In this document: positions 51,838 to 53,126 of the stretch, in pieces
Numbering within the stretch: position 1 is the stretch's first letter
Layout: the number at the start of each line of letters is the position of its first letter
Assembly (NCBI GenBank): GCA_043821365.1
Contig: JBDRCX010000006.1
Coordinates: 128,001-192,000, forward strand
Source of the DNA: Candidatus Micrarchaeota archaeon
GTDB lineage: Archaea > Micrarchaeota > Micrarchaeia > Anstonellales > Bilamarchaeaceae
Reading direction: 5' to 3'
DNA: 64,000 bases
Position numbers and translations under genes: made by a program
The notes under the pieces: model-generated
Database searches by the model: none
The model's input: only the letters and a program-made list of their open reading frames with translations
What the model was told of the DNA's origin: nothing

Positions 51838-52293
51838 TTACAAAAGAGTTTTTTGAAAAATACTTGGATCAATATTAAACATAACATCAATGGTGGCCTT
51901 CCAACTAGCGTCTGAATCAGATGGAGGTAATTCGCCTTTGAAAAATGCATTTGAAACACGCACCATAGTGGTACTTGTTGCAGATGGAGGTTCTGGTACT
52001 GCTTCTCTTACTTCTTTAACTAGGTCCAACAATCTTTGGGCATCATCTTGAGAAAGAACACCTTTCCCACTATAATTACGGCCTAGAGTAAATGCAATTG
52101 AAAGTAGATCACGTTGCCTTTGATCAGTAGCTTCCCTAAGCTTTCGAAAGTGTGCGACTCTGCCAGGCGCTGCAAGGATACTGAGCCCCTCTGTGAGCAC
52201 AGAAATAGCTGTACCTGTCCTTGCCCAACGATCAACTACCCCTGCCATTTCTTGTTTCCTGTCAGGGGGAAGACCACGATAATTAAAACCCAT
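51838..52293 (-). CDS. Hypothetical protein
   Basis: 151-aa orphan ORF with a TTTATA box upstream on the minus strand. Confidence 0.55.
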   Translation of the reverse strand: MGFNYRGLPPDRKQEMAGVVDRWARTGTAISVLTEGLSILAAPGRVAHFRKLREATDQRQRDLLSIAFTLGRNYSGKGVLSQDDAQRLLDLVKEVREAVPEPPSATSTTMVRVSNAFFKGELPPSDSDASWKATIDVMFNIDPSIFQKTLL

Positions 52294-52453
52294 GTTAAGG
52301 ATATAGATAATAAGTTATAAAAAGGTTCATTTTGTGGATGAGAGTCAAGTTTGAAGATGGGAATGATAGTACAACGAGAAAATACAGAGATAAGAATAGA
52401 ACCAACTGAAGTTTGATTAAACATTAACATCAGTATGTAAGGAGGAAAGTTTA

Positions 52454-52507
52454 GGTCAGACGCTGTTGACTTCATCATAGATCAGAGGTTGTTCAGGTCA
52501 TCATCCC
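52454..52507 (-). ncRNA. Archaeal C/D-box methylation guide sRNA
   Basis: Minus strand reads GGG-AUGAUGA(C)-CCUGAACAACCU-CUGA(D')-UCU-AUGAUGA(C')-AGUCAACAGCGU-CUGA(D)-CC: four perfect boxes, two 12-nt guides, short terminal stem. Confidence 0.9.
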
Positions 52508-52531
52508 GAATAGAATAGAATAAGATTAAGA

Positions 52532-52537
52532 TATAAA
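52532..52537 (-). promoter_or_regulatory. TATA box for the C/D sRNA
   Basis: TTTATA on the minus strand about 25 nt upstream of the sRNA 5' end. Confidence 0.55.
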
Positions 52538-52538
52538 C

Positions 52539-53126
52539 CTAAGGTTTGGTTGCTTTGAGTACTGATAACTTCTCAAAGAAGAAACTTTCTGTTTTCAATA
52601 CCTCAACAACATATTTGAGTTTTTTTAATTTTGAGATTGTTTTTTTCTCGTTATTTAGTGAACTTTGAACAAGAAATAAAGACCCGCCTGGCCTTAAAAA
52701 ACCATCAAATTCTCCCAAAAACATATCAAGAACTTTGCGTCCTGATCTGCCACCATCAAAAGCATGATTTACGTTGCCAGTTAGTTTTTCTTCTTTTGAC
52801 GTTGGTAAATATGGTGGATTGAATAGTATGAAATCAAACTTTTGTTTTGGGATTTTTGAAAACAAATTACTTTCGATAAATTTTACATTTTTAATCTTAT
52901 TGATTTTGGCGTTTCTAACTGCACATTCCACTGCTTCGGGATTTGTATCAACACCAAGAACTGTTTTTGCAGATTTAGAACAAACCAGACAAATTAAACC
53001 ACTACCACATCCGATTTCAAGAATATTTCCCTTTAATTTTTCAATAGAACCTGCGAGTAGAAATGAGTCTTCTGCTGGCTCATAAACTGAAGATGGAATA
53101 ACAATATCAAAACCTAAAAAGTTCAC
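52539..53126 (-). CDS. HemK2/N6AMT1-like SAM-dependent methyltransferase
   Basis: VYEPAEDSFLL, LEIGCGSG, FNPPY, GG..GR. Confidence 0.9.
   Translation of the reverse strand: MNFLGFDIVIPSSVYEPAEDSFLLAGSIEKLKGNILEIGCGSGLICLVCSKSAKTVLGVDTNPEAVECAVRNAKINKIKNVKFIESNLFSKIPKQKFDFILFNPPYLPTSKEEKLTGNVNHAFDGGRSGRKVLDMFLGEFDGFLRPGGSLFLVQSSLNNEKKTISKLKKLKYVVEVLKTESFFFEKLSVLKATKP

Follow-up and report, generated by a model that had tools for sequence, protein, structure and literature searches.

A conserved dual-guide box C/D sRNA of Micrarchaeia predicted to target U2552 and U2504 of 23S rRNA

Introduction

U2552, an A-loop nucleotide in the catalytic centre of the ribosome, is modified universally and can be methylated by two kinds of machinery. 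The protein enzyme RlmE acts on late assembly intermediates. In yeast and human, the nucleotide equivalent to U2552 is methylated by an RNA-guided fibrillarin/Nop1 RNP, with snR52 as the guide for Um2921 in yeast and corresponding guides for Um4498 in human. These guides are longer eukaryotic snoRNAs with asymmetric C′/D′ boxes, and the yeast protein Spb1 acts on the G that neighbours Um2921.

In archaea, C/D-guided methylation of the first A-loop nucleotide has been predicted in five of the seven species studied, including sR10 of the DPANN archaeon Nanoarchaeum equitans (PMC4644070). G2251 is a predicted target in three of the same archaea (PMC4644070; reviewed in PMC7994747). Half of archaeal C/D sRNAs are "double guides", which address two sites within 100 nt with one mismatch tolerated and are thought to assist local folding as well (PMC4644070).

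Our literature search returned no paper that links Micrarchaeota with C/D sRNAs. Here, we describe a locus in a Micrarchaeota genome that very probably encodes a functional dual-guide archaeal box C/D sRNA, with one guide predicted to target A-loop U2552 and the other, less certainly, U2504 in the peptidyl-transferase centre (PTC), as judged from its sequence, its relatives and the host's own rRNA. Since Um2552 guides have already been predicted in archaea, it belongs to a known kind of RNA, newly seen in this lineage.

Results

Anatomy of the sRNA gene

The window, that is, the whole 64,000-nt stretch of DNA analysed here, carries a 54-nt box C/D sRNA (GGG ... CC) at 52454–52507 on the minus strand. 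A preliminary description made from the same DNA had proposed a C/D sRNA with four perfect boxes and two 12-nt guides at this place, and both its coordinates and its layout proved exact. Read on the minus strand, the RNA opens with GGG (52507–52505) and continues with the C box AUGAUGA (52498–52504), the 12-nt D′ guide CCUGAACAACCU (52486–52497), the D′ box CUGA (52482–52485), a UCU spacer (52481–52479), the C′ box AUGAUGA (52472–52478), the 12-nt D guide AGUCAACAGCGU (52460–52471), the D box CUGA (52456–52459) and the 3′ CC (52455–52454). The terminal stem comprises only 2–3 bp (GG(G)/CC), compared with 2–5 bp in relatives, where some compensatory changes are visible by eye.

The TATA box previously noted at about 25 nt upstream reads TTTATAT (52531–52537, minus strand), and its centre lies ~27 nt upstream of the first G. 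We read this element as the sRNA's own promoter. It sits directly downstream of the TAG stop (52541–52539) of the preceding gene, and AGGTTTAWAT is kept at the corresponding position in same-genus loci. The preceding gene (52539–53126, minus strand) encodes a HemK2/MTQ2-family protein methyltransferase of 195 aa. This synteny is conserved within the genus, in which the HemK2/MTQ2 gene always precedes the sRNA, and tblastn matches end beside the sRNA in 14 same-genus loci.

A default Rfam scan of the window gave no match at all. In a permissive scan of the locus, several archaeal C/D families matched the sRNA end to end, among them sR9 (RF01312) with 35.9 bits (E 2e-6) and snoPyro_CD (RF00095) with 31.6 bits. 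The sR9 score falls 0.1 bit under the gathering score of 36, which explains the blank default scan; Rfam C/D families are guide-specific, and a new guide set is expected to miss the gathering score.

An 80-aa ATG-initiated open reading frame (52236–52478, minus strand) has the AUG of the C′ box as its start codon and extends into the next gene, and could be taken to mean that there is no RNA gene here, only motifs that cluster by chance or the 5′ part of this reading frame. A search with the strict four-box pattern gave one match in the 1.2-Mb genome and none in 20 shuffles. The ORF has no family match, and similarity in relatives is found only where it overlaps the sRNA or the next gene, so it is likely a false gene call that would mask the sRNA. 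The class-wide conservation of the RNA described below effectively refutes the coding or chance explanation, to which we assign next to no probability.

The 3-nt spacer between the D′ and C′ boxes is replaced in many relatives by a hairpin of 11–42 nt (loci include L011, L013, L016, L017, L018, L021, L126 and L128). A UCCUAC/UCCUAU loop motif recurs in several of these hairpins, whose stems are unrelated; others are plain UUCG hairpins. Pairing of the hairpin with helix 91 (GUAGGAG, between the two targets) was considered and set aside after an unbiased longest-match test gave no significant result.

Conservation across the order and class

To follow the sRNA beyond this genome, we used a profile (R1) built from 36 homologues (alignment A1), which scores 58.9 bits (E 1.5e-16) at the window locus. 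The UGAUGA core of the C box and the D′ and D boxes are invariant in the alignment. Of 41 relatives, 21 contain the string made of the C box, D′ guide and D′ box, each exactly one time, and the reversed control is found in none. The profile detects one sRNA copy per genome in 139 of the order's 150 genomes; among high-quality genomes the figure is 61 of 62, and among genera 44 of 45. In the class, it was present in 120 of 150 genomes and in nearly every family but two, f13 and f14; the profile matches in f14 are weak and carry different guides.

A separate observation concerns family f21, in which a homologous guide lies inside the 23S gene, on the same strand (L186:1689–1804 and L187:1703–1776, both minus; relatives G083 and G123). 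The insertion, 114 nt long, occupies the apical loop of a domain V hairpin at Rfam model position ~2403, ~370–420 nt upstream of the guide's own targets, and the boxes of this guide are degenerate (C box AUGAUAU, D box AUGA). Coordinates suggest a 23S-embedded guide in four more f21 genomes and perhaps in family f16. The embedded guide could be an excised element or a cis-acting guide kept in the rRNA.

The D′ guide and A-loop U2552

The preliminary description had paired the D′ guide with the A-loop of the 23S consensus. The pairing stands with the organism's own A-loop, encoded on contig C4; the sequence differs in detail, since it reads GGGUUGUUCAUC and not AGGUUGUUC, with a G·U pair at guide position 1. 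Counted from the D′ box, this U faces G2548, positions 2–10 form nine Watson–Crick pairs with G2549–A2557, and positions 11–12 are unpaired. The D′ guide thus contacts E. coli positions 2548–2557 with position 5 opposite U2552 (C4:18546). The E. coli numbering was set by the Rfam LSU alignment and consensus, and leans also on the standard E. coli sequence around Um2552. Archaeal C/D guides are expected to pair with rRNA or tRNA over about 9 bp or more and to have position 5 at the target; the D′ guide does so through nine Watson–Crick pairs and one G·U.

Own rRNA was searched with wobble-aware scoring. An exact or two-mismatch search for the guide complements missed the A-loop because G·U pairs and the unpaired guide 5′ end were counted as mismatches. 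The D′ match scores 16, a value that 24% of random window 12-mers reach somewhere in 4.5 kb of rRNA; taken in this single genome, the match is not significant and is weak evidence by itself. Across relatives the picture is clearer. The A-loop is the top-scoring site of the own D′ guide in all 11 genomes in which the relevant 23S region is assembled, the D′ guide core GAACAACC is conserved, and most relatives form 10 Watson–Crick pairs, for a score of 20 that just 0.36% of random 12-mers attain at any rRNA site. It is this conserved match between D′ guide and A-loop in relatives, and not the match in one genome, that supports the target. Consistent with the assignment of Um2552 by the D+5 rule in the preliminary description, U2552 is, with high probability, the predicted methylation target of the D′ guide.

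In family f21, the A-loop carries the variant G2550U, which the f21 guide does not compensate; covariation between guide and A-loop was looked for at this position in f21 and none was observed.

The D guide and peptidyl-transferase strand U2504

The best site of the D guide in its own genome is the peptidyl-transferase strand UCGCUGUCGGCU (E. coli 2500–2511), 48 nt upstream of the A-loop target, a spacing that fits the double-guide pattern. Positions 2–7 are Watson–Crick paired, position 8 is an A·C mismatch, and positions 9–12 are paired, including one G·U. Position 5 lies opposite U2504 (C4:18498), with the mismatch three nucleotides away from it. With 10 of 12 positions paired and one mismatch, the D guide falls within the complementarity rule only in its relaxed form for double guides. 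Its score of 15 is reached by 46% of random 12-mers, and the match in one genome alone is not significant.

The D guide was left unconstrained by the search pattern, yet it is conserved. Among 20 distinct D guide variants, the peptidyl-transferase strand is the best common target, with a mean score of 14.1 compared with 9.2 for the next site. The A–U pair at position 5 and positions 2–7 are invariant, and positions 9–10, which face G2508 and G2509, are with few exceptions C or U. Position 8, opposite C2507, is A or G: 13 of the 20 variants have the A·C mismatch seen here and 7 have G, and in most other families of the class G at this position gives uninterrupted pairing over positions 2–11.

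These data bear on whether the D guide methylates at all. The sRNA may be a genuine U2552 guide whose D guide makes no Um2504 and serves instead as an RNP anchor or a folding chaperone for the peptidyl-transferase strand, or whose second function is decaying in the order. The A·C at position 8 here and in the 13 variants, together with the non-significant score in the single genome, would suit such a role, and double guides with only one methylating arm have been described (PMC4644070). The invariant A–U pair at position 5 and invariant positions 2–7 argue against it, as does the uninterrupted pairing in the 7 variants and most other families with G at position 8. This invariance and the G-at-8 pairing look like selection on the full guide duplex. 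An anchoring or chaperone D guide is possible though somewhat doubtful, and we regard U2504 as the predicted methylation target of the D guide, an assignment that is likely, not secure.

The strand has a peculiarity of its own. At C4:18497 (E. coli 2503), adjoining the predicted Um2504, the 23S gene reads C in place of the A that is highly conserved in the Rfam archaeal consensus; in E. coli this nucleotide, A2503, lies at the tunnel entrance. Nearly all assembled 23S genes of the order share the motif AUCGCUGUCGGCU, as do several other families; in some families, position 2503 is U. The G at D guide position 4 pairs with the lineage's C.

Search for competing targets

The guides were compared with the organism's own 16S, 23S and tRNAs, as the preliminary description had proposed, and the 23S sites came out best. 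No competitive 16S or tRNA target was found in the own partial 16S, the complete 16S of two relatives or the eight tRNAs that could be parsed. A third of archaeal C/D sRNAs lack an rRNA target (PMC4644070), and a tRNA-Leu matches the D guide over 7 bp, so the true targets might be other RNAs (a tRNA, the missing 3′ half of 16S or an mRNA) with coincidental complementarity to rRNA. The best guide score in the complete 16S of the two relatives is nevertheless no higher than 12, and every relative shows both 23S sites again, as the best common targets of the guides. We therefore consider coincidental rRNA pairing extremely unlikely and retain the two 23S sites.

Host genome, RNP proteins and further guides

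The assembly consists of 6 contigs (1.2 Mb, 36% G+C) and is 87% complete. For a neighbouring protein, the nearest named relatives come from Candidatus Micrarchaeota/Micrarchaeia MAGs. All three RNP proteins proposed for checking are encoded: fibrillarin (282 bits), Nop5 (183 bits) and L7Ae (94 bits). The proposal of RNA-guided modification in a reduced genome is supported by these genes; RNA-guided Um2552 is not new for archaea, given the five of seven species noted above. The 23S gene and a partial 16S gene are both on contig C4, unlinked, on opposite strands and ~14 kb apart. The 23S ends with the contig at model position 2706 of 2987, which still includes domain V, and the 3′ ends of both rRNAs are absent from the assembly. 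Because of these absent ends and the 87% completeness, an RlmE gene or a better target could sit in the missing sequence. As a side observation, the 23S gene (C4:16589–18045) has ~740 nt extra within model positions 1423–2143, an intron or an expansion.

Including the window locus and candidates, the genome carries at least four C/D sRNAs. An earlier result of a single C/D sRNA in the genome was discarded once further guides were found; it arose because the regular expressions, with their box and stem filters, were over-strict. A second C/D sRNA, which emerged from weak generic-model matches, lies at C6:220400–220455 on the plus strand, 28.4 kb past the window end (loci L137/L142). Its boxes are degenerate (C box ACGAUGA, D box UUGA), its terminal stem is 5 bp here and 6 bp (GGCAAC/GUUGCC) in relatives, and of 24 same-genus genomes, 20 have kept it. 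The D′ guide of this RNA, UACCGUCCCAGG, pairs at 11 positions with the 23S P-loop and places G2251, the RlmB site in E. coli, at position 5. A further candidate, at about C6:228040–228100 on the plus strand, has the C box AUGACGA and a D guide that matches 16S ACCGCCCGUCAA with C1402 at position 5 and a mismatch at position 6; a rival 16S site scores slightly above this one. Another candidate, on the minus strand of contig C1, has a D′ guide that forms 11 Watson–Crick pairs with 23S CCUGUCGAACAC in domain II.

FtsJ-domain proteins and the sRNA

The preliminary description had asked whether rlmE is absent, and indeed a search for FtsJ/RlmE domains gave none in this genome, at 87% completeness. 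Weak FtsJ matches in 30 of 41 relatives were not taken as evidence of RlmE: the strongest of them, the only one examined, is an RsmB/F m5C methyltransferase (173 vs 35 bits). When a stricter FtsJ threshold was applied to the genomes of the class, solid matches were confined to f13 (16 of 20 genomes), f14 (6 of 13) and the single-genome families f28 and f34. None was found in ~115 genomes of the other, sRNA-bearing families, many of them >90% complete.

These results allow us to weigh whether the sRNA is redundant, with Um2552 made by a protein enzyme, either an RlmE encoded in the unassembled 13% or a divergent methyltransferase. At 87% completeness, the absence of FtsJ in this genome means only "not found", which leaves room for such an enzyme; the lack of any solid match in the ~115 genomes and the RsmB/F cross-match behind the best weak hit in relatives both speak against one. 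We judge a redundant sRNA to be highly unlikely, and the reading of the sRNA as the U2552 guide is kept.

RlmM is the Cm2498 methyltransferase. In the families without the sRNA, the FtsJ-domain proteins resemble TlyA or, weakly, RlmM/RlmE, and for this reason those of f13 and f14 were rejected as clear RlmE orthologues. In f13 and f14 (for example L190 and L191) they measure ~360–420 aa, carry the FtsJ domain at the C-terminus and are candidate protein counterparts of the guide. The complementary distribution of sRNA and FtsJ fits replacement of a protein enzyme by a guide RNA; because these proteins are not clear RlmE, we do not call it proof, and as the sRNA-lacking families probably form one clade, the distribution may reflect one or two events.

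Discussion

We infer the following mechanism from the sequence and its conservation. The sRNA would have its own TATA promoter for minus-strand transcription and would assemble with L7Ae, Nop5 and fibrillarin. Its D′ guide would pair with the A-loop (helix 92), so that fibrillarin would 2′-O-methylate U2552, the RlmE/FtsJ site in bacteria. The D guide would pair 48 nt upstream with the peptidyl-transferase strand 2500–2511 and bring U2504 to the methylation position. The two pairings jointly would probably aid local rRNA folding as well.

Taken together, the observations may be joined in a broader picture, which we offer tentatively and at somewhat less than even confidence. The sRNA would be a class-wide, single-copy core guide of Micrarchaeia that took over the universally conserved Um2552 from an FtsJ-type enzyme, and it would also make an undescribed Um2504 beside the lineage-specific A2503C. 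The fibrillarin machinery would be kept for a few guides (A-loop, P-loop and decoding centre), and in one family the guide would have moved into the 23S gene, where it could act in cis.

The findings indicate that very small DPANN genomes keep RNA-guided methylation and direct a small guide set to the most conserved functional sites of the ribosome. The predicted sites are U2552 in the A-loop and U2504 in the PTC for the sRNA described here, and G2251 in the P-loop and possibly C1402 of 16S for guides elsewhere in the genome. Such a small set would lend itself naturally to a "minimal set" argument about the ribose methylations that rRNA cannot do without. The sRNA would also offer, within one class, an example in which guide RNA and protein enzyme take each other's place, for which the distribution is not proof of replacement. 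For annotation, sRNA genes of this kind are invisible to ORF-based methods, and here a spurious ORF begins inside the RNA itself; many Micrarchaeota genomes would be corrected if this sRNA family were added to RNA annotation resources.

Compared with described systems, the features that we consider modestly new are that the sRNA is conserved almost throughout a DPANN class, that it has U2504 as a predicted partner site and that it is anticorrelated with FtsJ-type proteins. RlmE/FtsJ (RrmJ), of bacteria and many archaea, has the same predicted product, Um2552 in helix 92. It is a protein-only enzyme, whereas here specificity would come from a guide RNA and catalysis from fibrillarin, in a genome in which no FtsJ gene was found. 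The window sRNA resembles Rfam sR9 and snoPyro_CD in that all four boxes and their spacing align over the full length. Its guides are unrelated to theirs, and with an sR9 score just short of gathering it falls outside both families.

The host is a low-G+C Micrarchaeota archaeon with a handful of guides, unlike the archaea surveyed previously, which have 26–128 (PMC4644070). The closest counterpart is sR10 of N. equitans. Both are dual-guide RNAs of ~55 nt with 12-nt guides, both place U2552 at position 5 of one guide and send the second guide to a nearby domain V site, and both belong to DPANN archaea with reduced genomes. They differ in sequence family and in the second target, which lies at the base of helix 93 (E. 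coli C2606) for sR10 and is predicted to be U2504, in the peptidyl-transferase strand, for the sRNA of Micrarchaeia.
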